Part shown: positions 1,232 to 20,713 of the stretch, in pieces
Numbering within the stretch: the stretch's first letter is position 1
How the letters are laid out: the number at the start of each line of letters is the position of its first letter
From: Gammaproteobacteria bacterium
GTDB lineage: Bacteria > Pseudomonadota > Gammaproteobacteria > GCA-001735895
Assembly: GCA_050298595.1 (NCBI GenBank)
Contig: JBNKUM010000026.1
Coordinates: 1-58,550 of the forward strand
Reading direction: 5' to 3'
DNA length: 58,550 bases
Made by a program: the position numbers and the translations under genes
Notes under the pieces: generated by a model
Told to the model about the DNA's origin: nothing
Databases searched by the model: none
The model's input: only the letters and a program-made list of their open reading frames with translations

Positions 1232-1244
1232 CAAAACGGAATTT

Positions 1245-2268: not shown

Positions 2269-2514
2269 CTAGAGCAACTCGATCGAAGGATCTACGGTTC
2301 TTCTCAACTATTGTGCCAGAGTTGCTGGGTCATGCGGAAATAGCTATGCAGGGCGATCTGATGCATCTTATACGATGAAAGATAAACCATTTTCGTAAAT
2401 CCATCCGGATACTTGAACACTACCGGTAATGCTGCACATCAGGCTGCCAACCGTGCTGTACTTGCCATGCGTGACTAGTGCTCCGTAAGCGCGGTAAATG
2501 TACCTGTCTCCTTT
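2269..2514 (-). pseudogene. ndh: Frameshifted remnant of the 3' end of ndh
   Basis: Nucleotide homology to 23769-24013 at an offset of 21500; translation GDRYIYRAYGALVTHGKYSTVGSLMCSITGSVQVSGWI matches the C-terminus of intact NDH-2; contains indels. Confidence 0.85.
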
Positions 2515-2691
2515 CCAAATAGCAGTCATTTTAGAAATAATTATGTGCTTCCATAGTTGCATAGCGGCTTTTCTCAGGTTCGCAAAGGAGAGAAAGAACG
2601 ACCTTACCGTATCCACTACGATTGCCAATTGCCACCACCCTGTTACACTTCATGCCAAAATAACCTTTATAAAATCGGGAGTACTCAGTCT

Positions 2692-3360: not shown

Positions 3361-3629
3361 AAGAATAGTTAAGCCAATCTATTCAACCAGCGAGTCGCCA
3401 GCCTTTGAGCTCCGGTTTGCTGGCATCACCTAAACACGACAGGCTCCTGGTCTCTGATATTTACCTTTAACGTTAACCTGAGCTCTTAAATGGTGGCTAA
3501 GGTCCCATTTATTTTTCAGCGTCGACCAGGTCGCTTGTATGGGTTCGAACACTATAGATTCCTCCACATTTTTGTTGCTGAAATATGTCGTGCTAGTACT
3601 GGGAGGTAGTCCGCCCATGCGTCTCAAAT

Positions 3630-4282
3630 CAAACCGGAATAAGAAATATTTATAGCAATAATCTTTTATAGGTCTTCCTTGTACGCGGGTGTTTTCGGAA
3701 TAGGGTTTAGTGATTAAACTTTTAAATAACCCATGTTAATCATCGAGCCATTGTTTATCACCTGTGAATATTGAGGAATATAGACAATGGTAGCTTCTTA
3801 ACTAATTGTAATTAAAGGGAAAAATATAAAATGAATACCTCTCGGTTTAAAACTAATTTATCGTGTAAATAACCGCTTAGAGAAATGTTTCGTGTGAATA
3901 TATAATTATTCAAATATCCAATAATCAGTATTCATTAAATCAATCTATTGGTGATAAATTTTATAATACCTTACTTTTTATGCAGGAAATAGAAGTAAAG
4001 AGTACATGTATAAATATTTCCAATTAGCCGTTACAACTATAACACTAGGGGCACAAATGTCGGTAATGTAACCATGATGGATTTGGTTTCTGGATAACTT
4101 CTTAATGGAAGACCAGGAATTGATCGATCACTATTTGATTCGATTGTTCCAGGAATCTGAAAGGATTGAAAACTTGTGAATTGGGATCGTGAATCGTTTA
4201 GGAATTGATCATTTTTAATCGGAAGTTGATTGGTAATGGACTAAAAATGCCTCATTTTAGTACAAAAGATGAGGAAGGAGTT
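3630..4282 (+). promoter_or_regulatory. AT-rich upstream regulatory region of the cytochrome operon
   Basis: Long AT-rich gap before a ~19 kb co-oriented gene run; direct repeat aggaattgatc at 4115 and 4200; RBS GAGGAAGGAG at 4271-4280. Confidence 0.4.
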
Positions 4283-4966
4283 ATGAAGCAGCTATTGAGT
4301 AAACACATTAAGCAAAAAGGGTTAATACTGAAACTGGGTTTTGCATCAATTAGTCTGGCAGTTTCTGGTACCACATTTGGCGGTACCATTGTGGGTTCAC
4401 CACATGATATGTCGGCGCAAGGTTGGTCTGGAGGCGAAATCTGTAAAGTTTGTCATACCCCGCATAACGCGCAAGATGGTGTTGTGCCTTTGTGGAACCA
4501 TACTGTCACAACCGCAGTGCACACGATGTATACCAGCCCGTCATTCGACGGATTAGCAACAAGAGCTGACGGTCCCACAGGGGCTAGTAAGCTGTGTTTA
4601 TCATGTCATGATGGGACGGTGGCTCCTGATTCGTTTGGAGGCGCAGTTGGTAATGCTGCGCTTCAAAACAGCAGGGCCATTTTTGGCACTGACTTGACCA
4701 ATGATCACCCCATCTCGTTCACCTATGATGATGCCCTCGCCATTGCTGATGGCGCATTGGCTATGCCATCAGCAGCGACAATGATCAATGTGGGTGAAGG
4801 TACTGATGCGGATAGTGGCACTCTTGCGGAAATGCTGGTACCAACCGGCGAGCTTCAGTGCAATTCATGTCATGATGTGCATAACAAGAAAACGATTACA
4901 GGCACTCCGTTGTTGCGAATAAGCAATGCAGATAGCGCCCTGTGTTTGACTTGTCACACCAAGTAG
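4283..4966 (+). CDS. OmcE-like tetraheme c-type cytochrome (putative nanowire subunit)
   Basis: Four CxxCH motifs in the OmcE order: SPHDMS..EICKVCHTPHNAQ..PLWN..LCLSCHDG..GTDLTNDHPISF..QCNSCHDVH..LLR..SALCLTCHTK at the C-terminus; signal-peptide-like N-terminus; strong RBS. Confidence 0.85.
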   Translation: MKQLLSKHIKQKGLILKLGFASISLAVSGTTFGGTIVGSPHDMSAQGWSGGEICKVCHTPHNAQDGVVPLWNHTVTTAVHTMYTSPSFDGLATRADGPTGASKLCLSCHDGTVAPDSFGGAVGNAALQNSRAIFGTDLTNDHPISFTYDDALAIADGALAMPSAATMINVGEGTDADSGTLAEMLVPTGELQCNSCHDVHNKKTITGTPLLRISNADSALCLTCHTK

Positions 4967-4979
4967 AAAATCCAGGCAG

Positions 4980-5015
4980 TCCCTCGTAGGAGCCAATCTG
5001 CTTCTGCGGGGGGGA
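4980..5015 (+). terminator. Stem-loop after the tetraheme gene (terminator or mRNA-stabilising hairpin)
   Basis: tccctcgtaggagc-caatct-gcttctgcgggggga with G-U pairs; no immediate U tract. Confidence 0.5.
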
Positions 5016-5115
5016 TCTAGTTCACGGAGTAGCAATGGCGTACAGATGCTTTTCCATTCTGCGCGAATGGGTTTTCTGCTTTCATTTATTTTCTCCCTTT
5101 TGAAGTAACTGATTT

Positions 5116-6228
5116 ATGACGATAATAAAAAACCGCAACTGGCAATTTGTTACTGACCTGTTTGCTTTGAGCACATTAATGATTCTGTTAGTCGGATGTG
5201 CGACAACACCAAAGGAGGAAGATGTTGGATTTATATTCTACCCACCGCTACCAAATCCACCGTTAATACAATATTTGCATACATTTTCTAGCCAAAACGA
5301 TGTGGGTGAAGAAATGGGCGGTTTCGCAAAATTTATAATCGGCGACGAGGAGGGCATGACGACTATCAACAAGCCATATGGAACGGCCATCCATGATGGA
5401 AAGATCTATGTCGTCGATACCAGAGGCGGCGGTTATGCAATATTTGATGTAAAGCAACAGGTATTTAGCTTTGTGATCGGGTCGGGAGGCGGGGTTCTCA
5501 GAAAGCCTATCAATATCGCCATAGATAAGGCAGGTAATAAATATATTACTGATACAGGGCGTGATCAGATCGTTGTGTTTGATGTTAACGACGAGTATCT
5601 GCGTGCATATGGGGTTGATGGTGAATTCAAGCCATCGGATGTTGCGTTATCCGGCAACCAGTTATTCGTATCAGACCTGCTGCATCACAACATTCATGTG
5701 CTCGACAAACAAAGCGGCAGGGAAATAACAACAATCTCATCTGTCGGTTCTGATATAGACCAACTCTTCCACCCGACCAATATCGATATCAAGGGTGATT
5801 ATCTCTACGTGGCAGACACCTCAAATGCTCGTATCCAGAAATTTACTCTGACTGGTGAGTACGTTGCAAGTATCGGAAAAATGGGGGTAAACCTGGGCGA
5901 ATTCGCAAGACCAAAAGGAGTGGCAGTTGATAATGAAAACCGAATTTATGTTGTAGATGCTGCATTTGAAAACATTCAGATCTTCAACGATGAAGGAAAA
6001 CTATTGTTATTTTTTGGGGCACCGGGGGTGGAGAAGGATAACATTAATTTACCAACGACAGTGGCAGTTGACTATGACAATGTGCAATATTTTCAGCGCT
6101 ATGCGGCACCGAAATTTCATCTTGAGTATGTGATTCTGGTGGCCAGCCAGTTTGGTAGTAACAAGGTAAATGCCTACGGATTTGGAAAGATGGAGGGAGT
6201 GGATTATTCATCACTGGGGAGAAACTGA
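5116..6228 (+). CDS. NHL-repeat six-bladed beta-propeller lipoprotein
   Basis: Lipobox LLVGC; FYPPLPNPPLIQYL; repeated P.G+A+D..G.+YV.D (e.g. FARPKGVAVDNENRIYVVDAAFENIQIF). Confidence 0.85.
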   Translation: MTIIKNRNWQFVTDLFALSTLMILLVGCATTPKEEDVGFIFYPPLPNPPLIQYLHTFSSQNDVGEEMGGFAKFIIGDEEGMTTINKPYGTAIHDGKIYVVDTRGGGYAIFDVKQQVFSFVIGSGGGVLRKPINIAIDKAGNKYITDTGRDQIVVFDVNDEYLRAYGVDGEFKPSDVALSGNQLFVSDLLHHNIHVLDKQSGREITTISSVGSDIDQLFHPTNIDIKGDYLYVADTSNARIQKFTLTGEYVASIGKMGVNLGEFARPKGVAVDNENRIYVVDAAFENIQIFNDEGKLLLFFGAPGVEKDNINLPTTVAVDYDNVQYFQRYAAPKFHLEYVILVASQFGSNKVNAYGFGKMEGVDYSSLGRN

Positions 6229-6367
6229 ATTGAAAGAAAAATCGGATATAAAAGCAGCCGTTTAGATGATTGGTTCTAGCTATATGCAAACGATGATATT
6301 GATAACGGTCAATTCTCAAATGGCATCAGTTCCATGGGGGAATCACAGAGATAGTGTAAAGGTGCTA

Positions 6368-8383
6368 ATGGAAAACAAATTTGGTGCATACCAGATATCT
6401 GAAATTGGTTGTGTTTGGATGGTCATTGTTTTTTTTATCATTGTTCCGTCTAAAAGTCATTGTGCAACCCTTGATGCATTTAAATTAACGGGTGTAGAGG
6501 GTTCAATCAGGCTGGGATATTCATTTACCGAAACAGATCTTACTCAGGTCGGAGGTACTGATATCAAAGAAAAGAGAAGTGGCATGGAGCAGGAATTCAA
6601 TATCAACGCGCAAGCTTACGTGTTTCATCCGAATCTATTAGAAATGGAACTGGGTGCGGGCTTTCTGGCTGGCCAGGATAAACATGAAAGCAACTCTGGC
6701 ACCTATGATAGCGAGAGTGAGTATTATGATTTCAGCGGGCGCTTTAATTTTTTGAAGAACAAACCGTATCCAGTAAGTTTATATTATGTCAAAAGTAGTC
6801 CGAAGCAGGCAGTAGGTGTGGCAGATAGTCTAAATATTAAATCAGAATTATATGGGCTGTCATCGTATCTTAGGTCACCTCTAGTAAACAGCCCTGTCAC
6901 ATTAAGATTTGATCATACCCAGAGTAAGGGGGAAAGCTCGTTATCGGTTGTCGATGACAGCAGTGATTCCCTGTTTTTGGGTATAGCTACAAACATAGGA
7001 AATGTTGGTAACGGGAGTATTGGCGTGAATAAAATATCGAAAACGTCGGGCAGTGGCAGTCATAACCTGCCTTTGCAGGTGTCCACAAATGACACTGAGT
7101 CTATAGATTGGAATGGTAAAGTCGCATTAGGTAGCGAGCGAAACCTCAGCATAAGCAATCACCTTCTTCTAAGTAGCAGCGAGCAAAATGTCGCTCCCAG
7201 TAGAGATCGGCTTACATTTTATAACCATATAGACTGGAAAATTGATGATGCCACTGAGACTTACAATACTTACAATTTTTCAAAAAATGAATATGACAAG
7301 GTGGAGTCTAAAAACCAGAATCTTGTTATCGGCTCAGTCCATCGATATGGAGAATGGATGACTTTTAGTGCATCTGTTGATACAGAAAATGAGGTAAATG
7401 ACGGCTTTAAAAGATCAAGTTCCAGTTTGAATGGTAGCGCTATAGCACAAATACAGGTAACTGACCGCTGGGCATCTTCACTTGGTTATTCAGCATTTTT
7501 CAGATCCAATAGTCAGTCAACTAATGAGTTGACTATCAGCGCTTTTGATGAAGCTCATACGTTTAGCGGTATCTCTTCCATTACACTGACACATGAATAT
7601 GTTATCTCCGGTAGTGTAAGCGTAAGCAATGAAACTCACTCACAGGATTATGTAGAAAATATTGACTATATTGTCATTACCGTGGGCTCGGAGACCAGAC
7701 TGGAGAGATTGATCTCTGGAAATATTGCTGATGGACAGACCGTATTAATCAGCTATGAATATGAAGCAGGTGGTACGTTTGACTTTGATGAAATTTATCA
7801 ATCTTTTAATATCCGCTATTCTTTAGACCGGCGCTATAATTTTTCGCTATTTTACTCGACCAATAAACAGATATACCAATCAGGTATACCAGTGCACTCA
7901 ATGAAATCTGTGCAGAATTACCGCGTGGGTATGGATGCACAGGTTCCTATTAATAAAACTGCAGATTTTGGTTGGAGGTTGGAATTCGAGAGACGTAATG
8001 AAGACCTAAATCCATTTACTCGCAGCTCTTTTGATCTTAATCTAAATTCATCGTTACCGTTTAACGCGGCATTTTTGAGCGTGAATACAGGGTATCAACA
8101 GGTAGACAATGAATTATCACCCAATGACATTCGTGAAACCTATTTATCGACCAATGTTTCTGCCAGGACTAGTCTGGGGGGGAGAGCAAGTTTTGAGTGG
8201 ATCTATAAAATAGACAAGGGGAGAGATACACCAAAGAACTCAAGCGACGCCAAGTTACGTTACGAATGGAAGAGAGGGCGCCTGGATTTTTCATTATCCG
8301 CCAGGCATACGAAAGAAGAGCAAGGTATTGCATCACGCGAAAACTCAATCGTCGAAGCAGCTCTAAGAAGGGATTTTAGATGA
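6368..8383 (+). CDS. Outer-membrane beta-barrel (porin-cytochrome conduit or export channel candidate)
   Basis: Signal-peptide-like segment, long alternating amphipathic beta strands rich in Y/F/S/N, C-terminal ..LRRDFR. Start moved to ATG 6368. Confidence 0.7.
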   Translation: MENKFGAYQISEIGCVWMVIVFFIIVPSKSHCATLDAFKLTGVEGSIRLGYSFTETDLTQVGGTDIKEKRSGMEQEFNINAQAYVFHPNLLEMELGAGFLAGQDKHESNSGTYDSESEYYDFSGRFNFLKNKPYPVSLYYVKSSPKQAVGVADSLNIKSELYGLSSYLRSPLVNSPVTLRFDHTQSKGESSLSVVDDSSDSLFLGIATNIGNVGNGSIGVNKISKTSGSGSHNLPLQVSTNDTESIDWNGKVALGSERNLSISNHLLLSSSEQNVAPSRDRLTFYNHIDWKIDDATETYNTYNFSKNEYDKVESKNQNLVIGSVHRYGEWMTFSASVDTENEVNDGFKRSSSSLNGSAIAQIQVTDRWASSLGYSAFFRSNSQSTNELTISAFDEAHTFSGISSITLTHEYVISGSVSVSNETHSQDYVENIDYIVITVGSETRLERLISGNIADGQTVLISYEYEAGGTFDFDEIYQSFNIRYSLDRRYNFSLFYSTNKQIYQSGIPVHSMKSVQNYRVGMDAQVPINKTADFGWRLEFERRNEDLNPFTRSSFDLNLNSSLPFNAAFLSVNTGYQQVDNELSPNDIRETYLSTNVSARTSLGGRASFEWIYKIDKGRDTPKNSSDAKLRYEWKRGRLDFSLSARHTKEEQGIASRENSIVEAALRRDFR

Positions 8384-9432
8384 GCCAGAGAAAAATTAAT
8401 TCTCTGTTGACTTGTTATATGCTGTTTGCTGTTTCGATACTACTTTGTTCCTGTGCAGGAAGCACTCAACCCAATGAAATTAACAATAAAAATGTCAGCA
8501 TAATATGGCCGCCGCCACCATCTAAACCTCGTATAGAGTATTTGGGCACGGTATCAAGCCCACAGGATCTAGAGATAAAAAGCGGATTTATGGGATTTCT
8601 AAAGGATCTGGCGTTTGGTGAGGAGGATAACGGTATGGTCCTCCCGATGGCGGCGATTTCGAATCAGTTTGGACAACTGTTTGTGGCAGATAGCGGAAAA
8701 AAAATAATACACAGGTTTGACAAGCTAAACGAAAAATATACCCCGATAAAAAGAGAGGGTGATAAGAAGTTTGCTTCACCGGTAGCTATGGCAACTGATA
8801 AAGCCGGAAATGTTTACGTAGTGGATTCTGATCTCGCAAGGGTTTTTGTGGTAGCGGTTAATGCAGACTACGCCGGTCAATTAGCGCTGGATGGCAACTT
8901 TATCAGACCCACTGGAATCGCTATAGATAAAGATAGTGGACAGATCTATGTTGTAGATACCGGAATACATGCTGTATACATCTTTAATAAGGATAATTCT
9001 TTAGTAAAAAAGTTCGGTACTCGCGGCACAGGAGATGGCGAATTTAATTTCCCTACCTATATATGGCAAAACCTTGAAGGCAGGTATCTCGTCACCGACA
9101 GTCTAAATTTTCGTATTCAAATATTTGATCGCTATGGTCGATACCTTTCGCAGTTTGGCAGTGCTGGAAATGCCACCGGTGACCTCGCCAGACCTAAAGG
9201 TGTAGCAGAAGATAGCCATGGGCATGTGTATGTCACAGATTCTCTATTCCATAATATACAGGTATTCGACGAATCTGGAGCATTCCTGTTGGATTTTGGT
9301 GTGCAAGGAACCAGTCCTGGTGAATTCTGGCTTCCTGTGGGGATTTTTATTAGTCAGGACGATAAGATATATGTCGCGGACTCTTATAATCATCGTATTC
9401 AGATGTTTCGATATATTGGTAAAGACTTATGA
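8380..9432 (+). CDS. NHL-repeat beta-propeller lipoprotein
   Basis: Lipobox LLCSC; WPPPPSKPRIEYL; GEFNFPT, DLARPKGVAEDSHGHVYVTDS and GEFWLPVGI repeats; ATGA overlaps at both ends. Confidence 0.85.
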   Translation: MSQRKINSLLTCYMLFAVSILLCSCAGSTQPNEINNKNVSIIWPPPPSKPRIEYLGTVSSPQDLEIKSGFMGFLKDLAFGEEDNGMVLPMAAISNQFGQLFVADSGKKIIHRFDKLNEKYTPIKREGDKKFASPVAMATDKAGNVYVVDSDLARVFVVAVNADYAGQLALDGNFIRPTGIAIDKDSGQIYVVDTGIHAVYIFNKDNSLVKKFGTRGTGDGEFNFPTYIWQNLEGRYLVTDSLNFRIQIFDRYGRYLSQFGSAGNATGDLARPKGVAEDSHGHVYVTDSLFHNIQVFDESGAFLLDFGVQGTSPGEFWLPVGIFISQDDKIYVADSYNHRIQMFRYIGKDL

Positions 9433-11123
9433 ATACCAGATGGCAAATATTTTATCTGATAATTGTATTTTTATTTACATTGTCTGATGCATATTCGGGT
9501 ATAGCGGCTAGCAAGCATAATTTGTCGGTCAGTGGCAGTGGCCCCATAAGAGCTTCGGGTGAGAGTGATATATGTATCTTTTGCCACTTACCGCATAATT
9601 TCAATCCAAGACAATCGATATGGAATCATGAAAAGACCGGAGGCTATTACACCCCCTATTCAAGTTCGACGGCAATATCATTTATCGGACAGCCTAATGG
9701 CACATCTGTTCTATGTCTGAGCTGTCATGATGGGACGATTGCGCTGGGCAATGTTATTAGCGAAGAAATGACGATTCCAATGCTGGGAGGCATAACTACT
9801 ATGCCTCAGGGGCCATCGGTTCTCGGTACAGATCTATCTGATGATCATCCAATTTCCTTCGCCTATACCTCAAGCATTGCAAACAGGAGGGATGATCTGG
9901 TTCATCCGTCAGAACTGACGGCTGCGGTTAAACTCGACAGGATGGGGCGTATGCAATGTACTTCCTGCCACGATCCACATAACGATAATAATGGAAAATT
10001 TCTCACGATGTCTAATCGTGCCGGATCACTTTGCCTGACTTGCCACAGAAATCTTAAAAACTGGATTCAGTCCTCGCATAGTACATCAGTTTCCAGGTGG
10101 GCAGGACAAGGAGTAAATCCATGGCCCGATAGTCAATGGACATCTGTGGCAGACAATGCCTGTGGAAATTGTCATAAAACGCATAACGCTGGCAAAGCGG
10201 AACGATTACTGAATTATTCTCAGGAAGAAGAGAACTGTCTGGTATGTCATAACGGTCAGCTTGCTAAGACCGATATATCAAATACATTAAGAAAGTTTTC
10301 TATACATCCGGTTCAGAAAACAACAGGGGTGCATGATCCTAAAGAAGGGGCCATTGTATCTTCGCGTCATGTAGAGTGCAGTGATTGCCATAATCCACAT
10401 GCTGTAAGTAACAGCAGTGGTTTACTGAGTGGTTCGCTAGTCGGTGTTCGAGGTGTTTCCATCGACGGGGTGGAGCTCTCATCGATTAATCATGAGTATG
10501 AATTATGTTTTCGCTGTCATAGTGATGGCTACAATAAGCCTCCATCCAGAACGCCAAGGCAAATTGAACAACTCAATGTGCGCGAGGAGTTTTTTTCAGG
10601 GAATCCTTCGTTCCACCCGATAGCAGCTGTGGGGAAAAATCAGAATGTACCAAGCCTGATTTCGCCGTATAACATAAACAGCATCATGGACTGTGGTGAT
10701 TGCCATGATAGTGACGATAGTGTGGCATCAGGTGGCAGCGGTGCGAATGGGCCGCATGGTTCTCGCTATGTCCCCATATTACAGAAAAGATATGAGACCC
10801 TGGACAATACTGTGGAAAGCTCAGCCACTTATGCGCTTTGTTATAAGTGTCATGAGCGGAGTAGTATTCTCAGTGATCAAAGCTTTAAGTCGCATCGGCT
10901 ACATATCGTAGATGAAAAAACCAGCTGTAACACATGTCATGATCCCCATGGCGTGAGTTATACACAGGGTAACTCGACGAATAACAGCAGTCTGATTAAT
11001 TTCGATATTACGATAGTAAAAGAGAATGCTATGAAAGATTTACGTTACGAATCGACAGGTCGATTTAGCGGTGTATGTTACTTAAGTTGCCATGGAAGTG
11101 ATCATTCTCCCAAAGCGTATTAA
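9429..11123 (+). CDS. Multiheme c-type cytochrome, 11 CxxCH + 1 CxxxCH, with an N-terminal OmcE-like module
   Basis: Manual motif count; signal peptide; SKHNLS..ICIFCHLPH..LCLSCHDG..GTDLSDDHPISF..CTSCHDPH..LCLTCH. Confidence 0.9.
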   Translation: MNTRWQIFYLIIVFLFTLSDAYSGIAASKHNLSVSGSGPIRASGESDICIFCHLPHNFNPRQSIWNHEKTGGYYTPYSSSTAISFIGQPNGTSVLCLSCHDGTIALGNVISEEMTIPMLGGITTMPQGPSVLGTDLSDDHPISFAYTSSIANRRDDLVHPSELTAAVKLDRMGRMQCTSCHDPHNDNNGKFLTMSNRAGSLCLTCHRNLKNWIQSSHSTSVSRWAGQGVNPWPDSQWTSVADNACGNCHKTHNAGKAERLLNYSQEEENCLVCHNGQLAKTDISNTLRKFSIHPVQKTTGVHDPKEGAIVSSRHVECSDCHNPHAVSNSSGLLSGSLVGVRGVSIDGVELSSINHEYELCFRCHSDGYNKPPSRTPRQIEQLNVREEFFSGNPSFHPIAAVGKNQNVPSLISPYNINSIMDCGDCHDSDDSVASGGSGANGPHGSRYVPILQKRYETLDNTVESSATYALCYKCHERSSILSDQSFKSHRLHIVDEKTSCNTCHDPHGVSYTQGNSTNNSSLINFDITIVKENAMKDLRYESTGRFSGVCYLSCHGSDHSPKAY

Positions 11124-11266: not shown

Positions 11267-12331
11267 ATGCAAAACGATAATATGAACGTATGTGGATTAA
11301 ATACAAAAATAAAAAAAATATTAATATTCTTTGCATTTGGTATATCGATCACAATAAAAATACTTTGTTCATCATCGTACGCAGCAGCAACAAAAATGAG
11401 TGGAGATTTGCAGCAAGAGAAAAGCAGGGCAGAGAGTGAGTATGAGAATTTTTACTCCCTCGTAGGAGGTTTGGAAAATAGGGGTCGGGTTAATCCTCAT
11501 TGGGATAAGACTCGGTGTAATTCCTGTCATGAAAACGGAAAAACAATTCAGGATGCTGAGATGAGTATTAAGAATAAAGAGGAGTTATGTTACAGCTGTC
11601 ATGCTGAAGATGTGGTTCATAAATATATACATCCAACTGGAATATCGGTACCAGAAGAGTTCGAGAAACGTATTGAAAAAAATTGGCCTGAAAAATTGAA
11701 TCTTAGGAGAGAGGGGGAAATAACATGCTATACCTGCCATGATGTGCTGGATCAATGCCTTTCTGGTCGATCATACATGTCCAGAGCTAATCCAAAATTT
11801 CTAAAAGGTGCGCCATATGCTAAGCGTTATGATATTTGTTATAAGTGTCATGATTCATCAAAATATAGAAAGATGAATTCACATGAGCAGATAGATGAGA
11901 GCGGGAATCTGAAGCTGAATAAATGTCGTTTATGCCATATTGTTAAAGACGAAGGGTCAGTTAAAAAAGGTATCAGGCGTGATCTGAGTAAATATCCATT
12001 ACTGAAAAAACTGGAAAATGATCGCAATCTACTTTGTTTGCGTTGCCACAAAAAAATTGATCATCCAACAAGTGCGTTCAAATTCACATCAAGCAACAAG
12101 TATAGGCATTTCATAAAAATCACTGAAGAAAAAAAGGCAACACTAGAGCGGATGATTAAAAAAACAGGCATCGTTTTACCGCTGGAACCGGATACTGACA
12201 GAATTAACTGTGCTACTTGCCATCAGCCACATCAGCCGGGAGTATTTGAGCAAGGCGCACAGAGTAGGGACATACTTTCCCCAAAGAGAATGAGGGTAGC
12301 TAATATTTGTGATCAATGTCATGAAAAATAA
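11267..12331 (+). CDS. Octaheme c-type cytochrome
   Basis: Eight CxxCH (CNSCH, CYSCH, CYTCH, CYKCH, CRLCH, CLRCH, CATCH, CDQCH); N-terminal signal-like segment; start uncertain. Confidence 0.85.
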   Translation: MQNDNMNVCGLNTKIKKILIFFAFGISITIKILCSSSYAAATKMSGDLQQEKSRAESEYENFYSLVGGLENRGRVNPHWDKTRCNSCHENGKTIQDAEMSIKNKEELCYSCHAEDVVHKYIHPTGISVPEEFEKRIEKNWPEKLNLRREGEITCYTCHDVLDQCLSGRSYMSRANPKFLKGAPYAKRYDICYKCHDSSKYRKMNSHEQIDESGNLKLNKCRLCHIVKDEGSVKKGIRRDLSKYPLLKKLENDRNLLCLRCHKKIDHPTSAFKFTSSNKYRHFIKITEEKKATLERMIKKTGIVLPLEPDTDRINCATCHQPHQPGVFEQGAQSRDILSPKRMRVANICDQCHEK

Positions 12332-12360: not shown

Positions 12361-13503
12361 ATGAATAACTCAAAAACGACTATCACAATTAAAAAAATAA
12401 CGGGTATATCTTTGTTGCTGATTCTTTCTGTCTACTATTTAGAAGGATACACAGCAGATTTTGCGGATGATGAAGCCTGTTTGATGTGCCACAAATACAT
12501 TCGTATGGCACGCATTACGGAAGAGGGGGTTTTTCGTTCATATTATGTGCCTCCGAGCACATTTGCCAAGACGGTTCACAGAAACGTCCCATGTAGAGAT
12601 TGTCATAGCTATATTACGCAACTTCCCCATGAAAAAGTAGAGGAGGGAGTAAAGTGTGACAAGGAGTGCCACTCTAAGAATAACCCTGCAACCGGAAAAC
12701 CATTTAGTCATAAGGCTATATCCGATCTTTACTCTGAGAGTGTTCATGCAAGAGTCAAGAATGCAACCGGCCTTGATGCTGATAAGCCCTATTGTATAAC
12801 CTGTCATACAAACCCTGTCTATAACCCTTCAGAAGAGGTCCCTCCAAAGGAGATACTGGATCGCTGTGCGCTGTGTCATGAGAAGAGGGAGTTCGTTAAA
12901 CAGTGGTATTTTCACACCAGTAGAAGAGTTCTGGATGTTAAACGATCTGGTCAGGAAATTGTAGAAATTTGTACTCGCTGTCATGCAAACCAGGAATTAA
13001 TAGAGCGACACAAAAAAGCACATGATGCTGCAGGAGACCCGATGGGTGATAAGTTTCCAATAGCTGCAACGTCTTATAAGAATAGCTTTCATGGAAAGGT
13101 GACAAAGTACGGTATGGTCGGTGCAGCTACTTGCCTGGATTGTCATGCAGACAGTGATCAATATTACAAGAGTGTACATAAAATACTGCCATCAAGGAAT
13201 CCTGATTCTCCAATAAGTAAAGAAAATAGATTAAATACATGCCAGAAGTGCCATACAGGTGCCGATCAGAAATTTGATGTGGTCGATCCACATCCTTCGT
13301 TTGAAGAAGAACGTAACCCAATCTTACATGCGGGTGAAAAGATCTATAGCGTATTTGGAAATATCATAGTCTTTTGTTTGATTGGATTATCCTTGTTTGA
13401 GACTTTTGGAAGGCGTCGAGATGGAGCCGGATGGCGGCTTCGTATGGGTTCAACATGGTGGAATAAAAGTCGCAGAAAAAGGGATAGAAATATACCGAAG
13501 TAA
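12361..13503 (+). CDS. CbcA-like membrane-anchored multiheme cytochrome c (7 CxxCH + CxxxCH), copy 1
   Basis: Signal peptide, heme motifs, C-terminal TM helix VFGNIIVFCLIGLSLF and a basic tail; followed by a cytochrome b gene. Confidence 0.8.
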   Translation: MNNSKTTITIKKITGISLLLILSVYYLEGYTADFADDEACLMCHKYIRMARITEEGVFRSYYVPPSTFAKTVHRNVPCRDCHSYITQLPHEKVEEGVKCDKECHSKNNPATGKPFSHKAISDLYSESVHARVKNATGLDADKPYCITCHTNPVYNPSEEVPPKEILDRCALCHEKREFVKQWYFHTSRRVLDVKRSGQEIVEICTRCHANQELIERHKKAHDAAGDPMGDKFPIAATSYKNSFHGKVTKYGMVGAATCLDCHADSDQYYKSVHKILPSRNPDSPISKENRLNTCQKCHTGADQKFDVVDPHPSFEEERNPILHAGEKIYSVFGNIIVFCLIGLSLFETFGRRRDGAGWRLRMGSTWWNKSRRKRDRNIPK

Positions 13504-13574
13504 ATAAGAATTTAACTCAAACAACCAGGCAAAGATTTTAAATGTTGCCTGGCAATAAGAAGGTAGGAAGCTAA

Positions 13575-14528
13575 ATGAAGTTATCAGAAGAAGCAGAAAA
13601 GGTATTGCAGTTGTCCATGAGGCAACAGAACATTAAAGAGTTTGACAGGACTGAAATAGAAAGGCTAATCGGCCTTATCCCTGATGACAGGGTGTTTCTC
13701 TACAAGAATGTAATGTCCAATCCTATTGGGGATCTGCCACGGTATTCAATCCATATCAGAGTTCAACATCTACTTACATTTACTACTTTCCTGTTATTGG
13801 CTTTTACAGGTCTTCCCGTTCATTTTTTCGATGCGGTTTGGGCTAAACCATTCAGTCAATTACTTGGGGGAATAGATGTTACCCGAGTGATACACAGAAC
13901 ATTGGCTGCAATCATGATTGTAGGGATGGTTTACCATGTAATCACACTTGTTCTAGGAACGACGTTAAAACTCTTAAAGGGTACTTTCGATATCAGACGA
14001 ACAATACTTCCAAGATGGAAAGATCTTAAGGATATGCGCGAAGACATTCTGTATTTTTCTGGGAGGTCTCAAATGAGACCCGAAATGGATAAATTTATGT
14101 ATAAGCAAAAAATACACTATTTCGCTGCAGTATTTGGAAGTTGTGTGATGGTTGCGAGTGGGTCTTCCTTTCTTTATCCAGATATCTGGGCAAGCTATCT
14201 TCCTTATGGGTGGGCGCTTTATATGCAAAATATCATGCGTCTCGCACATTCGCATGAGGCCTTATTGGCACTGGTCGTCATTGCCTTCTGGCATTGGTAT
14301 AACGTTCACCTTGCACCTGGTCGTTTTCCAATGCAATGGACATTTCTATCGGGGAAAATTACACGTGAACATCAAATTGAGGAACACTTTCTTGAATATA
14401 TACGAAACCTGGTAGAGCTTCCTGAGGAAAGATCGATCCTTTTGGAACAATTAGCTGAGATGGAAAAGTATACGGATGGGGGGATGGGGCAGTATCGACA
14501 AACACCAGTTGCTTTAACGGAAGGGTAA
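13575..14528 (+). CDS. Di-heme cytochrome b membrane subunit (FdnI/HyaC/CbcB-like), copy 1
   Basis: RVQHLL..LLAFTGLP, IHRTLA, KFMYKQKIHYF and AHSHEALLALVVIAFWHWYNVH; four TM helices with His ligands. Confidence 0.85.
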   Translation: MKLSEEAEKVLQLSMRQQNIKEFDRTEIERLIGLIPDDRVFLYKNVMSNPIGDLPRYSIHIRVQHLLTFTTFLLLAFTGLPVHFFDAVWAKPFSQLLGGIDVTRVIHRTLAAIMIVGMVYHVITLVLGTTLKLLKGTFDIRRTILPRWKDLKDMREDILYFSGRSQMRPEMDKFMYKQKIHYFAAVFGSCVMVASGSSFLYPDIWASYLPYGWALYMQNIMRLAHSHEALLALVVIAFWHWYNVHLAPGRFPMQWTFLSGKITREHQIEEHFLEYIRNLVELPEERSILLEQLAEMEKYTDGGMGQYRQTPVALTEG

Positions 14529-14719
14529 ATTCCTTTGGTCAAAAAAAAATATCTTTGGCGTCAAGTTCTGTCTTATGCATCTCTACTTTTTGTGTTGAGC
14601 TGGACAATTTATTTTATCTATGTGTACGTAATGATTCTGTTTTGATGCAAGGCAATGCGAGTCTTTGTTATTACACCGAAAAGAAGTACAAATATTAAAG
14701 GGGTTGGAGTAGTTATTTT

Positions 14720-15751
14720 ATGCATGAAGTAACATCTTACGGAAATATTATTATTGCAACAGCAGTGGTGGTGATCGTTCTGTTTATGATCATGCTTGTT
14801 GTTGTAATTGATCACAAGGCGAGACTTAAAGAAAAAAAACGTGATGATATCTTTCATATATCAGGAGTAAAACGAAATCACCCTATCTGGTCGTATCTTA
14901 TTGGGTCATTTTTATTGATCGTAATATTAGGTGTGGCCATCCAGCTGATAGCTACCGTTTTGAATTATATTCCTGTGAACGAAAATAATAAACCTTCTGA
15001 GCTACTTGCTTCGCTAAAAAAGAAAAGCGTATTAGAAGATGCGAGGCATTTTCATAATCCAGCAAATACACTGGCTTTGGAAGGAAAAAAGAGTGTTTGT
15101 TATTACTGCCATGGTGACTTTCCCCACTTTCAGAAACGTATGATTCGTACCTTACTTAACATGCATACTCAATTCATTGGATGTATGACCTGTCATGCTA
15201 ATCCGGATAAGGCGGATGAAAACTTGATAACCCTAAAGTGGTTAAACTTTTCAGGGATAGAGGTTGAAGGCGGGCATTTCGGTGTTGATTATGATAAGGA
15301 TAGTGGTTACCTCGTCGATACCGATGACTTTTTCTCAAAGATAGTACCTTATCTAAACAATGATGGTAATGAACAATTGCTTGAGATTACTGAAGATGAT
15401 CCCATTGCGATAGATTTCGTCAAGGTACAGTCAACCTTACAGGGACAGAATAGAGAAGCGGTTAAAAAGAGTCTTCATCGTATGGTGCGCCCAAAAGGAC
15501 GGTTCTGTACGCGTTGTCACACCGAAAGAGCGAAAAGTTTCGTTCCATTTGAACAGCTGGGTTTCTCGGAAGAGAGAATTTACGACCTTACCAATTTGAA
15601 CATTATCGGGTTGGTAGAGAAGTATAAAGAGTTCTATATGCCGAATTTAATGAACAGGGAGATTGAGCCAATAAAAATAAATTTAAATGGTATTCCGGCT
15701 GAGAAAGAAAGGATATATCAAACTTTGCCTCAGCTTAAAAATGATGGCTAA
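14720..15751 (+). CDS. Membrane-anchored triheme cytochrome c, copy 1
   Basis: Two N-terminal TM helices; CYYCH, CMTCH, CTRCH; paralog of 18824-19735. Confidence 0.8.
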   Translation: MHEVTSYGNIIIATAVVVIVLFMIMLVVVIDHKARLKEKKRDDIFHISGVKRNHPIWSYLIGSFLLIVILGVAIQLIATVLNYIPVNENNKPSELLASLKKKSVLEDARHFHNPANTLALEGKKSVCYYCHGDFPHFQKRMIRTLLNMHTQFIGCMTCHANPDKADENLITLKWLNFSGIEVEGGHFGVDYDKDSGYLVDTDDFFSKIVPYLNNDGNEQLLEITEDDPIAIDFVKVQSTLQGQNREAVKKSLHRMVRPKGRFCTRCHTERAKSFVPFEQLGFSEERIYDLTNLNIIGLVEKYKEFYMPNLMNREIEPIKINLNGIPAEKERIYQTLPQLKNDG

Positions 15752-15906
15752 CCGCAGAGCAGAAAAACTGCTAAAGCTATAATGCTTCCTTATTCTCAGA
15801 GTTGGTTATATCAAGTCGACTAGTATAGTTAGTTTAATCAAATTATTAAGTATAGAAAGGATCTTATGGAGAGGATATATATGAAAACAAAGGAAATTAT
15901 CGTGCG

Positions 15907-16821
15907 ATGAATTTCCGTTTAGATCAGGTCGAAAATATTAATGCTACAGGCGAAAGCAGGTCAAGTGTACGCAAGACGTATTACGCGCTAATACTTTCAA
16001 TATTTCCCGGTTTGGGTCAGCACTACTCGGGTCATCTTATTCGAGGCATCTCATTATTTATCTTTCTGATAATTATTTCGTGGGTTGCGGCAATTATTTT
16101 TATGTATACGACATCTACGATCATCAGTGTGATCCTGCTGTCTATTCCTGTAGTTGTGTATGTATTAATAGGAATAGATGCTGTTTATTGTTCACTGAAC
16201 CAGAAAGAAATATACGTATTAAAGTGGTATAACAAAAATTGGATTTACATAGCAGTCATCATTGTTTTATTTTCCACAATAAATCCATTGATGGATACTC
16301 TGATAGGGAAACACATTGTTCGAGCATACCTTGTCTATACGAATAGTATGGCACCAACTGTATTAAAACATGATGTCATTGTTATAAACAAACTATCTGA
16401 ACCAGAAAGGAATGATATCGTATTAATAGAAATGAGCCAGGAGAATACAAAAGGTTCGATGTCAACAGTTATTGATAAGCAGATTTTAAGAAGAATTATT
16501 GCTATTCAAGGGGATGAACTCGAAATTCTAGGAAAGAAAATATATATCAATGGGGAAATATTCGAAAGTTCATTTGCCAGTTACGGTGAACAGCTTAGCC
16601 CCAACTATTATGTAACAAATGAATATCACTATGGCCCGATAGATGTACCCGAAAATACCTTCTTTGTATTGTCTGACGCAAGGCAATACAGTTTTGATAG
16701 TCGAGTGTTTGGGTTTGTTCCAAGAGCGCAAATCACAGGAATAGCGACAAAGATATTCTGGTCGTGGAATCGCGACGAAGGCCATTTTATATGGGGAAGA
16801 ACTGCAAAGAAAATAAATTGA
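15907..16821 (+). CDS. Signal peptidase I (S26) homologue with extra N-terminal TM helices and an atypical active site
   Basis: FPGLGQHY TM region; box B TNSMAPT; box D ILRRIIAIQGD where KR is expected; box E LSDARQYSFDSRVFG. Confidence 0.85.
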   Translation: MNFRLDQVENINATGESRSSVRKTYYALILSIFPGLGQHYSGHLIRGISLFIFLIIISWVAAIIFMYTTSTIISVILLSIPVVVYVLIGIDAVYCSLNQKEIYVLKWYNKNWIYIAVIIVLFSTINPLMDTLIGKHIVRAYLVYTNSMAPTVLKHDVIVINKLSEPERNDIVLIEMSQENTKGSMSTVIDKQILRRIIAIQGDELEILGKKIYINGEIFESSFASYGEQLSPNYYVTNEYHYGPIDVPENTFFVLSDARQYSFDSRVFGFVPRAQITGIATKIFWSWNRDEGHFIWGRTAKKIN

Positions 16822-16932
16822 TTAATTCTGTATGTATGCGGAAATGTTGATCAACTTCCAGTAGCAATGATGTGACAGAAATATTGACTATTTATACCAA
16901 TTTAAGAGATCCTGGAAAGGTAATTCATATCG

Positions 16933-17991
16933 ATGATGAATAAAATTAAAACCGTTCATGCCAGTATACTGCTGGTGCTGTTACTTATAACAACAAGTGC
17001 ATTGGCTGCTGATGAGCTTAATTGCGTCCTGTGTCACAAATTCAAAGGCTTGAGCAGAATTGATGAAGACGGAAACTTCAGGTTGTTCTATATCAATCAA
17101 AAATTGTATAAAAAGGGGCCGCATAAACGCATCCATTGCAAAGATTGTCATCAGGATATTGATAAAATTCCACACGATCCAGCCAGCAAAGTAGATTGCA
17201 CAGTTCAATGTCATCTTACTGAACCTTCTGGTAACGAGAAGTTTTCACACAAACCGGTTGCTGAAATACTCGAGAAAAGTATCCACGGAGAAAAAATTAA
17301 AGAGTCATCCAGTGTAGAACATCTAGAGGATTATCCATACTGCACAGATTGTCATGATCAACCATTGTATAGACCGTTGTCGTTTTTTAAAGGGCATGAG
17401 GCGGGTGTAACGGAGCGAGGTTTAAGTCGATGCAAGACCTGTCATAGAACCGGTGATTTCGCGGAAGATTTCTATGCTCATGTGACCTCCAGATTACAGA
17501 AGCTACGTGTAGGCAAGGAAATAGTAGGGGTGTGTGCAAAATGTCATGCAGACAAAAAATTTCAGCAAAGACATGGACTTCAAATCAATGTGGTTTCTTC
17601 ATATTGGGACACCTTCCATGGTAAAGCCACCTATTTTGGATCAGATGCCACACCTGACTGTATTGATTGCCATGTAGTGAGTGGTGAAAATGTACATTCA
17701 ATAGAAGGAAAGAAATCTGATACATCGGCTGTTAATAAAAATAATGTGGCCGCCACATGTAAAGCTTCTGAATGTCACTCAAATGCGGGTGATTATATCT
17801 CCAGTTATCAGGTTCACACGGATTATGAAGATCCAGATAAATATCCTATGCAATATTATCTATTGAAATTCTTTAAGTACCTGATGGCAGGGGTGATGTA
17901 TTTCTTTATCACAGTGATATTTCTTGAATTACTTAGACGCCTGTTCCCCAGCTATTCAATTTTTAAAAACAAGTTATCCGACTTACATTAG
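16933..17991 (+). CDS. CbcA-like membrane-anchored multiheme cytochrome c (6 CxxCH + CxxxCH + CxxxxCH), copy 2
   Basis: Signal peptide ..SALA; heme motifs; C-terminal TM helix; aligns by eye with 12361-13503. Confidence 0.8.
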   Translation: MMNKIKTVHASILLVLLLITTSALAADELNCVLCHKFKGLSRIDEDGNFRLFYINQKLYKKGPHKRIHCKDCHQDIDKIPHDPASKVDCTVQCHLTEPSGNEKFSHKPVAEILEKSIHGEKIKESSSVEHLEDYPYCTDCHDQPLYRPLSFFKGHEAGVTERGLSRCKTCHRTGDFAEDFYAHVTSRLQKLRVGKEIVGVCAKCHADKKFQQRHGLQINVVSSYWDTFHGKATYFGSDATPDCIDCHVVSGENVHSIEGKKSDTSAVNKNNVAATCKASECHSNAGDYISSYQVHTDYEDPDKYPMQYYLLKFFKYLMAGVMYFFITVIFLELLRRLFPSYSIFKNKLSDLH

Positions 17992-18012
17992 ATCCCGAGA
18001 AAGAGCTAAGGC

Positions 18013-18816
18013 ATGAGAAAATATAAAAAAATCGTATATCGAAATGAAAAACGCTATTTCTATCGATTTTCATTAATGCAAAGAGTACAGCATGTAGTTC
18101 TGTTTACAACGGTAATAATACTATCACTTACAGGATTCCCGTTACGCTACTTCGATCAGCCCTGGGCAAAACCACTGTATGAATTTTTTGGTGGGATACA
18201 TATAGCTCCATGGATACACCGTATAACTGGATTGATTTTACTTGGTTTGTTTTTGTTTCACACTGGGTACTGGCTCTATCTGTTCTTCAAATACAGGGTT
18301 GGAAGACTGATGCTCGAAAAGAGACTGTCAGTAATTAATTTTATTCGAGAGTTTTTCTCTATGGAGATGGTGCCCAACAAAAAGGATTTTTTTGATTTTA
18401 TTGCCATGTGGAAATACCTGTTGTTCATAAGCAGCGAGCGCCCTCAGTACGACCGTATGTCGTGGAAGGAAAAGTTTGACTATTTCGCGCCCTACTGGGG
18501 TATTCCAATTCTTGGGCCTGCGGGATTAGCTCTGTGGTACAGGGATGAGTTTACACAGTACGTACCAGGTATTGTTTTGAATGCATTTTACATTATGCAT
18601 ACTGACGAAGCACTGCTGGCTGTCATATTTATATTCTTTGTGCACTGGTACAACGTCCACTATTCACCAGAAAAATTTCCTATGGCTACGGTATTTTTAA
18701 CTGGCTATCTTAGTGAAAGTGAGATGATTCATGAACACTATGACGAATATACACGCATCATGAAAGAAGAAGGCCTTGAAAATGAAATTCATCCTCAACA
18801 TAAAAACGAGGCGTAG
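18013..18816 (+). CDS. Di-heme cytochrome b membrane subunit, copy 2
   Basis: RFSLMQRVQHVV..LTGFP, WIHRITG, WKEKFDYFA and MHTDEALLAVIFIFFVHWYNVH. Confidence 0.85.
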   Translation: MRKYKKIVYRNEKRYFYRFSLMQRVQHVVLFTTVIILSLTGFPLRYFDQPWAKPLYEFFGGIHIAPWIHRITGLILLGLFLFHTGYWLYLFFKYRVGRLMLEKRLSVINFIREFFSMEMVPNKKDFFDFIAMWKYLLFISSERPQYDRMSWKEKFDYFAPYWGIPILGPAGLALWYRDEFTQYVPGIVLNAFYIMHTDEALLAVIFIFFVHWYNVHYSPEKFPMATVFLTGYLSESEMIHEHYDEYTRIMKEEGLENEIHPQHKNEA

Positions 18817-18823
18817 CTAATAA

Positions 18824-19735
18824 ATGTTACATGTCATAAGAAAAATAATCAGGAATCTATATGTTATCGTCCTGATGATATTTACCCTCTGGTATGGTTA
18901 TATTCTGTATCCGATTATATTTGAACATTCTGCTGATCAGTCTAGTGCCGAAGTCGAGGATGATGACGTGGATGTATTTTTTGGTCAGGGAACAACCGAA
19001 GAAGAGAAGGAGTTTCTAAAATCACTAAAACAACAGCAAAATACCGAAACAACCGATCTCGGCTATATGGTTGTAGAAGAGCAATATGTGAAAGGACATT
19101 TCCATCATGTGGGGATGAAAGTTGAAACCGATTCATTCAGTGTATGTATCAGATGCCATGGTGCCGTCCCTCATGATATGGCAAAGTCAATTCGTGCTTT
19201 TCTGAATATGCACGCATTTTACATGGCCTGTGAAACCTGTCATGTACGTCCGATTGATGGTGAACCCAATATGGAATTTCGTTGGTATGATCAGGCAACG
19301 GGAATAACCATAGAAAATCCTGCGGGGTTGAATGCGCAGGATGAATCCATGTATGGAAACTACTCAGCAAAAATAGCACCGGGAAGAATGGATGAAAATG
19401 GGAAATTCAAATTAATCAATGGGACTAAAGAGCTTGAATTTGCAAAAAGATATCAAAGTGATGAGTCTAGATTGAATGATACTCAGAAATCAAAAATGAA
19501 AAAGATAATTCACAGGAAAGTCAATGAACAACCACTGCTTTGCGATGGGTGTCATACCACTGAAAATCAGCCATATTTACCATTTGAGCTATTGGGGTAT
19601 CCCAAACGACGACTGTACGAACTTACCAGTACAGAGGTTGTAGGTATGATTAAAAAATATCAACAATTTTATATTCCCAATATATTACATGGTGGTGAAA
19701 GCAGAAAAGAGAGTAATAAAGATCAGAACTTATGA
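18824..19735 (+). CDS. Membrane-anchored triheme cytochrome c, copy 2
   Basis: N-terminal TM helix; CIRCH, CETCH, CDGCH; HFHH..RAFLNMH..KYQQFYIPN shared with copy 1. Confidence 0.8.
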   Translation: MLHVIRKIIRNLYVIVLMIFTLWYGYILYPIIFEHSADQSSAEVEDDDVDVFFGQGTTEEEKEFLKSLKQQQNTETTDLGYMVVEEQYVKGHFHHVGMKVETDSFSVCIRCHGAVPHDMAKSIRAFLNMHAFYMACETCHVRPIDGEPNMEFRWYDQATGITIENPAGLNAQDESMYGNYSAKIAPGRMDENGKFKLINGTKELEFAKRYQSDESRLNDTQKSKMKKIIHRKVNEQPLLCDGCHTTENQPYLPFELLGYPKRRLYELTSTEVVGMIKKYQQFYIPNILHGGESRKESNKDQNL

Positions 19736-20712
19736 CTGTCAGAGTGAAGTCTTTAATGTATGAAGTAACAGGTGTAAGGAAGGTACTTAATAAGTACCTT
19801 TTTCTGCTGTTTATATTGTCAGGTCACATACAGGCGGCAGAGCCAGAGGTACCGCTCGTAAACTGCCAGAAGGTTATGGTTTTAGACGGCTCTCCAACTG
19901 GTCATATGAAAATGCCAACCGATGTTGCAGTGGATGATGAAGGGAAGATCTATGTTGTTGATAGCGCTAATCATCAGATACTGGTTTTTGCAGCGGATGG
20001 AAAGTATTTAATGGCTTTTGGTTCACAGGGGAAGCCTGGCGAGGTATTAAGTTATCCAGTAGGGATTACAACAACTTCGGATGGGCTTGTGCTGGTGGCT
20101 GATCGTGGTAATCAAAAGATCAGGATTTTTAATTCAGATGGTAGCTTGCAGAAAACTTTTGATACAAAGATTGAGGAGGGAAGATATACGCCTGTCGATG
20201 TGGCGGTTGACAGCGAAGGAAAGCGAATATTTGTTACAGCTTCAAAACCGTTTCACCAGATTATGGTGCTGGATGCGAATGGAAATCTGATATCGCGATG
20301 GGGTCAGGCGGGAAGTAATAAAGGTGAATTTCGCTTTCCGGCAACTATAGCTGTAAGCCCTGAAGATGATGAGATTTATCTGGTCGATGTTCTAAATACT
20401 CGAGTTCAGGCATTTGATATGAACGGAAGCTTTTTAGTTACCGTTGGTTCGTGGGGAGTTACCCCCGGAAAGTTATTTCGACCTAAGGGCGTAGCTGTTA
20501 TGAAAGATAATAGCATACTGGTAAGTGATAGTTATCTTGGTGTTGTACAGTTATATGATAGTGATACACGTTTTCGGGCAGTGCTGGGAGTTGATGGTAA
20601 AATTGCTCGTTTCAATACTCCAACAGGCCTGCAAGTGGATGATCGTAATAGAGTTTATATTGTAGAGACCATGGCTGATAGAGTAACTGTTTGTCAGTTG
20701 TCCCCATTATAA
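19732..20712 (+). CDS. NHL-repeat beta-propeller protein (exported, no lipobox)
   Basis: MPTDVAVDDEGKIYVVDSANHQI, GEFRFPATIAV and LFRPKGVAV; signal-like FLLFILSGHIQA. Confidence 0.85.
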   Translation: MTVRVKSLMYEVTGVRKVLNKYLFLLFILSGHIQAAEPEVPLVNCQKVMVLDGSPTGHMKMPTDVAVDDEGKIYVVDSANHQILVFAADGKYLMAFGSQGKPGEVLSYPVGITTTSDGLVLVADRGNQKIRIFNSDGSLQKTFDTKIEEGRYTPVDVAVDSEGKRIFVTASKPFHQIMVLDANGNLISRWGQAGSNKGEFRFPATIAVSPEDDEIYLVDVLNTRVQAFDMNGSFLVTVGSWGVTPGKLFRPKGVAVMKDNSILVSDSYLGVVQLYDSDTRFRAVLGVDGKIARFNTPTGLQVDDRNRVYIVETMADRVTVCQLSPL

Positions 20713-20713
20713 A

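Follow-up and report, generated by a model that had tools for sequence, protein, structure and literature searches.

Does the small tetrahaem cytochrome gene that heads a long run of redox genes in a gammaproteobacterial genome encode the subunit of an extracellular cytochrome nanowire, and are its signals arranged so that this subunit outnumbers the proteins encoded behind it? The locus lies on contig JBNKUM010000026.1 (assembly GCA_050298595.1), of which positions 1 to 58,550 of the forward strand are analysed here and referred to as the window. The gene is of the omcE type and encodes a protein designated P0001. A preliminary description of the window likened it to OmcE of Geobacter sulfurreducens and read its surroundings as a layout that would over-produce a filament subunit. 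The comparisons presented below strongly support P0001 as a true member of the OmcE family. P0001 probably also acts as the major subunit of an OmcE-type filament, over-produced relative to a platform of helper proteins by its Shine-Dalgarno (SD) sequence and a hairpin-bearing spacer.

P0001 is a member of the OmcE family

Two structures in the PDB are clearly related to P0001. A phmmer search aligned residues 16-227 of P0001 with residues 5-232 of the 232-residue chain 7tfs_A (E = 1.7e-24), and residues 34-227 with residues 20-218 of the 218-residue chain 9yuq_N (E = 1.4e-24); the third-best match fell at E = 0.17. The first of these entries, 7TFS, is reportedly the OmcE (GSU0618) filament of G. 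sulfurreducens described by Wang et al. in Nature Microbiology in 2022. Chain 9yuq_N is named 'putative multiheme cytochrome c' in an entry of 16 chains, and both the chain number and the entry name suggest that 9YUQ is probably OmcE of Desulfuromonas soudanensis WTL (DSOUD_2954). Pfam and NCBIfam recognize only generic multihaem domains in P0001 (Paired_CXXCH_1 and Cytochrome_C7). An AlphaFold2 model built with 130 homologues (predicted local distance difference test score, pLDDT, 83.1) retrieved 7tfs as its sole Foldseek match in the PDB at E ≤ 0.001, among seven at E ≤ 10 (E = 4.1e-8, 33% identity). The corresponding template modelling (TM) scores, 0.52/0.58, are moderate because the protein consists mostly of loops. 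The OmcE-type identity claimed in the preliminary description is thus borne out both by E values near 1e-24 to the two solved filaments and by a single significant fold match.

The motif list given in that description was also correct. Translation of the open reading frame (ORF) yields HDMS, CKVCHTPHNA, PLWN, CLSCHDG, GTDLTNDHP, CNSCHDVH, LLR and SALCLTCH in the stated order, and the protein closes with CH-TK-stop, placing the last haem motif at its very end. CxxCH occurs four times, and neither CxxxCH nor CxxxxCH is found. Two alignments, of 26 and 130 homologues, show no variation at any of the 16 haem-binding residues: the motif residues C54, C57 and H58; C105, C108 and H109; C193, C196 and H197; C221, C224 and H225; and the further His ligands H41, H61, H142 and H200. 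In all stand-alone members of the 26-sequence alignment, as in both solved chains, the C-terminus lies two residues past the last haem His.

In OmcE filaments, one haem per subunit is completed by a His of the neighboring subunit, according to the available text of three reports (PMC9473688, PMC12954529, PMC13712944). The residue responsible is not named in the accessible portions of PMC11936953 or PMC12954529. Loss of this cross-subunit ligand would have spoken against the nanowire proposal, but no such loss is seen, because all four candidate His outside the motifs are retained in the homologues. A prediction with two copies of P0001 residues 34-227, run without haems, scored 0.00 against a mark of 0.42 and counts neither way. 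Read from the sequence, the N-terminal MKQLLSKHIKQKGLILKLGFASISLAVSGTTFG resembles a Sec signal, and residues 2-28 form a helix in the AlphaFold2 model. Residues 1-33 are a candidate Sec signal peptide, with a putative mature start at GTIVGSPHD placed from sequence and alignment.

The omcE-type gene and the spacer behind it

The start codon at 4283 is favored over an ATG at 4247, the choice of a gene caller (239-residue record), because some homologues begin at a Met aligned with 4283 (MKQ/MNL...). The upstream ATG has a weak ribosome site (-3.0). In front of 4283, the SD region pairs at -8.5 kcal/mol with a canonical anti-SD sequence, which had to be assumed because the assembly yielded no 16S 3' tail. 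This site is the strongest among the 15 genes of the cytochrome cluster, yet 6.5% of 2648 crudely called starts in the genome equal or exceed it. The ribosome-binding site earlier described as very strong is therefore strong, and the leading one of its cluster, but not extreme.

Approximately 920 nt of non-coding DNA (3361-4282) precede the gene, in agreement with its proposed position as first in the run. One sigma-70-like match in this leader resembles a promoter, although promoter-like sites are not above chance in the region (10 against 17.5 expected from shuffles). A search for sigma-54-type sites (TGGCAC-N5-TTGCW, two mismatches) gave 25 in the window where 32.8 were expected, with no site in 3361-4282. 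The leader also carries an exact 11-nt direct repeat, AGGAATTGATC, at 4115-4125 and 4200-4210, 85 nt apart, which may be a candidate regulator-binding site.

Between the omcE-type gene and the first helper gene, which encodes an NHL beta-propeller lipoprotein (NHL1), lies a spacer of 149 nt. The preliminary description noted here a stable stem-loop devoid of a U tract. This is accurate for the hairpin at 4981-5012, whose 3' side continues directly into GGATCTAG, but a second hairpin with a U-rich tail was overlooked. Its stem spans 5053-5071 and is followed by TTTTCTGCTTTC, and the U tract ends 34 nt before the ATG of NHL1. The segment 4960-5120 folds with z = -4.09, and none of 200 shuffles was as stable. 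The + strand of 4967-5115 is free of promoter-like sites in a sigma-70-type scan, and the Rfam matches for 3300-5300 stay at chance level (E = 0.28 and 0.69), well short of the gathering scores. A repetitive extragenic palindrome (REP)-like element was ruled out, as the stem occurs once in the genome and the spacer has no other match longer than 18 nt.

Related loci carry hairpins at the same place. In two Chromatiales relatives (L084 and L002), stems of about 15 bp with energies of -34 and -37 kcal/mol follow omcE, again without a U tract. Together with locus L083, whose very stable stem likewise has none, they represent the nearest relatives of the window with DNA to compare. Loci of Malonomonas and Desulfuromusa have textbook terminators there, and the majority of other phyla show the hairpin in the classical U-tailed terminator form.

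The recurrence of this design was assessed in 159 loci (79 from genomes, 80 from metagenomes). These contained 43 omcE-to-NHL junctions, reduced to 36 by removal of six near-duplicates and one without a findable start; same-length coding windows from the NHL gene (n = 68) served as controls in Fisher tests. A hairpin of at most -12 kcal/mol accompanied by at least five T in eight positions was present at 19 junctions and in six controls (p = 1.4e-6), and any hairpin of at most -18 kcal/mol at 23 junctions and in 20 controls (p = 9e-4). Hairpins of at most -12 kcal/mol taken regardless of a T tract do not discriminate (31/36 junctions, 42/68 controls; p not computed). Spacers after omcE have a median length of 161.5 nt, the longest reaching 523 nt. 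With a crude rule for picking start codons and an assumed anti-SD, the omcE SD was stronger than that of the next gene at 22 of the 33 non-redundant junctions with two locatable starts and weaker at 10 (Wilcoxon p = 0.005), the median energies being -6.7 and -3.7.

Support for the earlier suggestion that this layout over-produces the subunit is thus comparative, consisting of the enrichment of hairpins or terminators and the stronger SD of omcE. Partial termination behind the gene of a nanowire subunit has a precedent in omcS, which yields both monocistronic and omcS-omcT transcripts according to the available text of PMC2680965; the pair of transcript types parallels the read-through proposed here. 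A literature search for omcE as a monocistronic unit found no description of an omcE transcript.

Helper genes, proposed mechanism and competing explanations

In the portion of their report that is available, Petersen et al. (2026; PMC13712944) define a minimal omcE cluster comprising OmcE, two beta-propeller lipoproteins, a large beta-barrel and two multihaem cytochromes. All of these members, propellers, barrel and both cytochromes, are present behind the gene for P0001 (Table 1).

Table 1. Positions of the omcE-type gene, its flanking signals and the downstream redox genes in the window (SD energies in kcal/mol)
Feature	Position	Strand	Remarks
Sigma-70-like promoter match TAGAGA-17-TATAAT, 10/12	3878..3906	+	About 375 nt 5' of the start; weak evidence
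Shine-Dalgarno region GAGGAAGGAG	4271..4280	+	Directly 5' of ATG 4283
omcE-type tetrahaem cytochrome gene	4283..4966	+	227 amino acids, protein P0001
13-bp stem-loop, loop CAATCT, -23.4 kcal/mol	4981..5012 (arms 4981-4993, 5000-5012)	+	No U tract
Second hairpin, 7 bp, -7.0 kcal/mol, then TTTTCTGCTT	5053..5081	+	Intrinsic-terminator-like
NHL beta-propeller lipoprotein (NHL1), lipobox LLVGC	5116..6228	+	NHL E = 1.7e-17; SD -0.5, very weak
Large outer-membrane beta-barrel	6368..8383 (ORF open from 6266)	+	671 amino acids (up to 705); 0 Pfam families
Second NHL lipoprotein (NHL2), lipobox LLCSC	8380..9432	+	NHL E = 4.7e-27; overlaps barrel stop by 4 nt
564-amino-acid cytochrome, 11 CxxCH + 1 CxxxCH	9429..11123	+	Start overlaps NHL2 stop by 4 nt
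354-amino-acid cytochrome, 8 CxxCH	11267..12331	+	Second multihaem cytochrome of the minimal cluster
Further redox genes	12361..23263	+	Two triads, signal peptidase I, third NHL propeller, 849-amino-acid cytochrome with 20 CxxCH
Multihaem/cytochrome b/cytochrome c triads	12361-15751 and 16933-19735	+	
Signal peptidase I	15907-16821	+	Within the cytochrome run
Third NHL propeller	19732-20712	+	

The order OmcE, NHL, barrel, NHL and 564-residue cytochrome is complete in nine of the 79 genome loci, labeled as Acidobacteriota, Aminicenantes, Phycisphaerae, a deltaproteobacterium, Rhodoferax and a metagenome-assembled genome (MAG) with a Chitinispirillaceae label (locus L001). OmcE followed directly by an NHL gene is found in 23 of the 79, including Malonomonas rubra and Desulfuromusa. 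Because this succession recurs across loci, the subunit-first order is normal for the cluster type and no peculiarity of the window.

The lipoboxes of both NHL lipoproteins were read from the sequence. The AlphaFold2 model of the barrel (pLDDT 86.1) contains about 30 long strands, and its best PDB match is MtrB, chain 6r2q_B (E = 1.3e-10, TM 0.44/0.45), with TonB-dependent receptors, LptD and ushers ranking lower. The 564-residue cytochrome begins with a full OmcE-like module of about 207 residues (encoded at about 9501-10049) that is 35% identical to P0001 (BLASTP E = 5e-28) and keeps all 16 haem-binding residues; eight more haem motifs extend beyond the point where OmcE ends. Cytochromes of this type are conserved in clusters of many phyla, with E values down to 1e-159. 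As far as the available text of PMC13712944 goes, OmcE operons encode no candidate for an anchor or a tip.

The two downstream triads are similar; each consists of a multihaem cytochrome, a formate-dehydrogenase-gamma-type cytochrome b and a small cytochrome c, an arrangement that resembles a quinol-linked module of the inner membrane. An Ectothiorhodospiraceae locus (L003) likewise has an OmcE homologue accompanied by both triads and by the large cytochrome. The genome has three genes of the LepB type, the signal peptidase I gene of this run among them, and no counterpart of the latter was found beside OmcE homologues in the 79 genome loci. This enzyme may be a putative dedicated processing enzyme for the exported cytochromes.

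These elements can be assembled into a mechanism. P0001 would be exported by the Sec pathway, receive four c-type haems and stack head-to-tail outside the cell, one haem per subunit being closed by the His of its neighbor on the model of the two solved OmcE filaments. The propeller lipoproteins, the MtrB-like barrel and the 12-haem, OmcE-headed cytochrome would provide an outer-membrane pore or anchor together with an electron feed, and the two cytochrome b modules further downstream would link it to the quinone pool. The omcE-type gene appears set apart by the strongest SD of the cluster and by its two-hairpin spacer, while the helpers have weak SDs and overlapping stops and starts. Most transcripts probably end or are stabilized at the hairpins, and a minority would read through, giving many subunits per assembly machine. 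The helpers probably depend on this read-through, because the U tract ends just 34 nt ahead of the NHL1 ATG and the sigma-70-type scan of the spacer gave no promoter-like site. They look like a tightly coupled unit, judging from the SD energies of NHL1 and the barrel gene (-0.5 and -1.0, against -8.5 for omcE) and from the 4-nt overlaps of barrel with NHL2 and of NHL2 with the cytochrome.

The first half of this mechanism turns on whether P0001 polymerizes. The available text of PMC13712944 describes OmcE-like tetrahaem genes as widely distributed, not all of them needing to form wires, and restricts nanowire candidates by gene context. The homologue search returned more than 7000 relatives of P0001. 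An OmcE-family protein that stays soluble or surface-bound and exchanges electrons with the barrel-cytochrome complex would fit such a distribution. This alternative is nevertheless unlikely, as the genes around P0001 form exactly the context by which nanowire candidates were picked in PMC13712944, and the protein agrees with both solved filaments in its eight axial ligands, in the His arm at its N-terminus and in a free C-terminus of the form CHxK.

Several points weigh against the second half, the over-production of P0001 by SD and spacer. The main hairpin has no U tract and the hairpin that has one is weak, at -7.0 kcal/mol. Plain hairpins of at most -12 kcal/mol are common in the coding controls, and junctions are told apart from controls only by the stronger or U-tailed classes. 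The SD comparison across loci depends on the crude start rule and assumed anti-SD mentioned above. One alternative is a stem-loop and SD that are incidental and carry no regulatory meaning, a reading for which the 42 of 68 controls with a hairpin of at most -12 kcal/mol can be cited, as can the SD, whose place in the top 6.5% is not exceptional. It is highly improbable, given that hairpins with a U tail or of high stability are over-represented after omcE homologues across phyla (p = 1.4e-6 and 9e-4) and that the spacer is far more stable than its shuffles (z = -4.09). Moreover, in a relative with 70% protein identity (L083), the 13-bp stem is kept at the same -23.4 kcal/mol through five one-sided pair-preserving changes while loop and flanks have diverged, a comparison that is suggestive, as it involves one relative and zero double compensatory changes. 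The hairpins might, conversely, act as a full stop, leaving omcE monocistronic and the helpers under a promoter of their own, so that two promoters set the ratio. The strong U-tailed terminators at 19 of 36 junctions and the room left for a promoter by long spacers in many relatives (median 161.5 nt, maximum 523 nt) are compatible with this arrangement. In the window, the 34 nt between U tract and NHL1 ATG and the empty + strand scan of 4967-5115 for sigma-70-type sites make it distinctly improbable.

The over-production of a filament subunit from the head of its cluster has a familiar counterpart. In pilA, papA and fimA, the gene for the major subunit stands first, has strong translation signals and is followed by a stem-loop that keeps the assembly genes behind it at a lower level of expression. 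Pili and fimbriae involve unrelated proteins and secretion routes, and the likeness is one of operon logic only. A broader reading, speculative and doubtful as a whole, would see the strong SD and the hairpin or terminator behind the subunit gene as a conserved cross-phylum device for OmcE stoichiometry that arose in parallel with these operons. It would treat the U-less gammaproteobacterial stems (-23 to -37 kcal/mol in the window, L083, L084 and L002) mainly as stabilizers of mRNA 3' ends and not as terminators. In this sulfur oxidizer with RuBisCO and Dsr, a wire supplied by the two cytochrome b modules would link the oxidation of sulfur to extracellular acceptors or partners at a distance, or else take electrons up. 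The 564-residue OmcE-headed cytochrome would form the base of the filament, and an orphan five-haem paralogue (described below) would serve as its tip or as a 'leaky' variant.

The host and its place among known electron conduits

The window belongs to a genome that encodes the large subunit of RuBisCO and DsrA, both above curated cut-offs. Positions 1055-14963 are 99.68% identical, over 13.9 kb, to the L001 contig in the MAG labeled Chitinispirillaceae. An origin in Fibrobacterota was considered on the strength of that label and rejected on three grounds. RpoB of the window genome is 77% identical to that of a Candidatus Thiodiazotropha genome and 74% to that of a Chromatiales MAG, compared with 54% for the Chitinispirillaceae MAG; the tetranucleotide profile of the contig is typical of its genome (rank 49 of 73); and the type VI secretion system (T6SS) genes include TssJ, TssL and TssM. 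From these data, together with RuBisCO and DsrA, the host is most likely an autotrophic sulfur-oxidizing gammaproteobacterium. The L001 stretch is probably a binning error in the MAG; the alternative is a very recent transfer. Pseudomonadota is among the five phyla in which the available text of Petersen et al. reports OmcE clusters (PMC13712944).

Homologues of P0001 at E ≤ 1e-15 are present in three of 13 genomes of the same genus, at 42-47% identity, and in none of 27 other relatives (40 searched). The cytochrome cluster (3400-23300) has a G+C content of 41%, against 47% in the rest of the window (23700-58550). This contrast and the patchy, distant homologues within the genus hint that the cluster may have been acquired horizontally. 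The genome holds an orphan OmcE paralogue, P0122 (G000:C24:148563-149222; L081:1447-2106), with 43% identity and a fifth CxxCH (CLGCH) after the NDHP motif; there is no NHL or barrel gene near it. P0122 matches the five-haem OmcE-like class proposed as a 'leaky' wire family in the available text of PMC13712944. The remainder of the window carries a complete T6SS gene set at 25196-56172 (TssA, B, C, E, F, G, J, K, L, M, ClpV, Hcp, VgrG, FHA, PP2C, TagF and DUF2169), within which a PAAR-like toxin-domain protein is encoded at 54486-55469.

Compared with OmcE of G. sulfurreducens (7TFS), P0001 has the four CxxCH in the same order, the four distal His, the HD(L/M)S N-terminal arm, a C-terminus two residues past haem 4 and the same helper genes. 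The two differ in their loops (TM 0.52-0.58) and in their hosts, the one here being a sulfur-oxidizing gammaproteobacterium. Unlike the G. sulfurreducens cluster, this one has no glycosyltransferase block on its 3' side; cytochrome b modules and a signal peptidase follow, and then the T6SS. A minimal cluster lacking glycosylation genes is shared with D. soudanensis WTL (DSOUD_2954), whose OmcE nanowires are bundled and anti-parallel according to the available text of PMC13712944. With the OmcS filament of G. sulfurreducens, the wire proposed here would share an insulated haem chain and a cross-subunit His, but OmcS has six haems and no similarity to OmcE in sequence or fold, as far as the accessible portion of PMC9473688 describes it.

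Kinship with the MtrCAB conduit (6R2Q) extends to the barrel, structurally closest to MtrB, and to the multihaem cytochrome gene that adjoins it. The barrel differs in having no Pfam match, more strands and an inserted domain, and its partner cytochrome is OmcE-headed instead of an MtrA-type decahaem. A Methylobacter extracellular electron transfer cluster (PMC13322032) was considered as a further counterpart and set aside; it is of the MtrAB type and not this cluster.

The OmcE family, its filament and this type of cluster are already in print (7TFS, 2022; PMC13712944, 2026). What the locus adds is modest: a cross-phylum rule of a hairpin or terminator after the subunit gene, a corrected host assignment and the context of a sulfur oxidizer. 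The OmcE wires solved so far come from just two Desulfuromonadia, and the window provides a complete example of the locus in an autotrophic sulfur-oxidizing gammaproteobacterium. The terminator-like hairpin behind the subunit gene constitutes a simple, testable rule for how cells could set the ratio of subunit to machine, and it could assist annotation by pointing to the polymerizing one among the OmcE-like genes of a genome. Long-range electron transfer in this host would tie the cycling of sulfur and carbon to minerals or partner cells.

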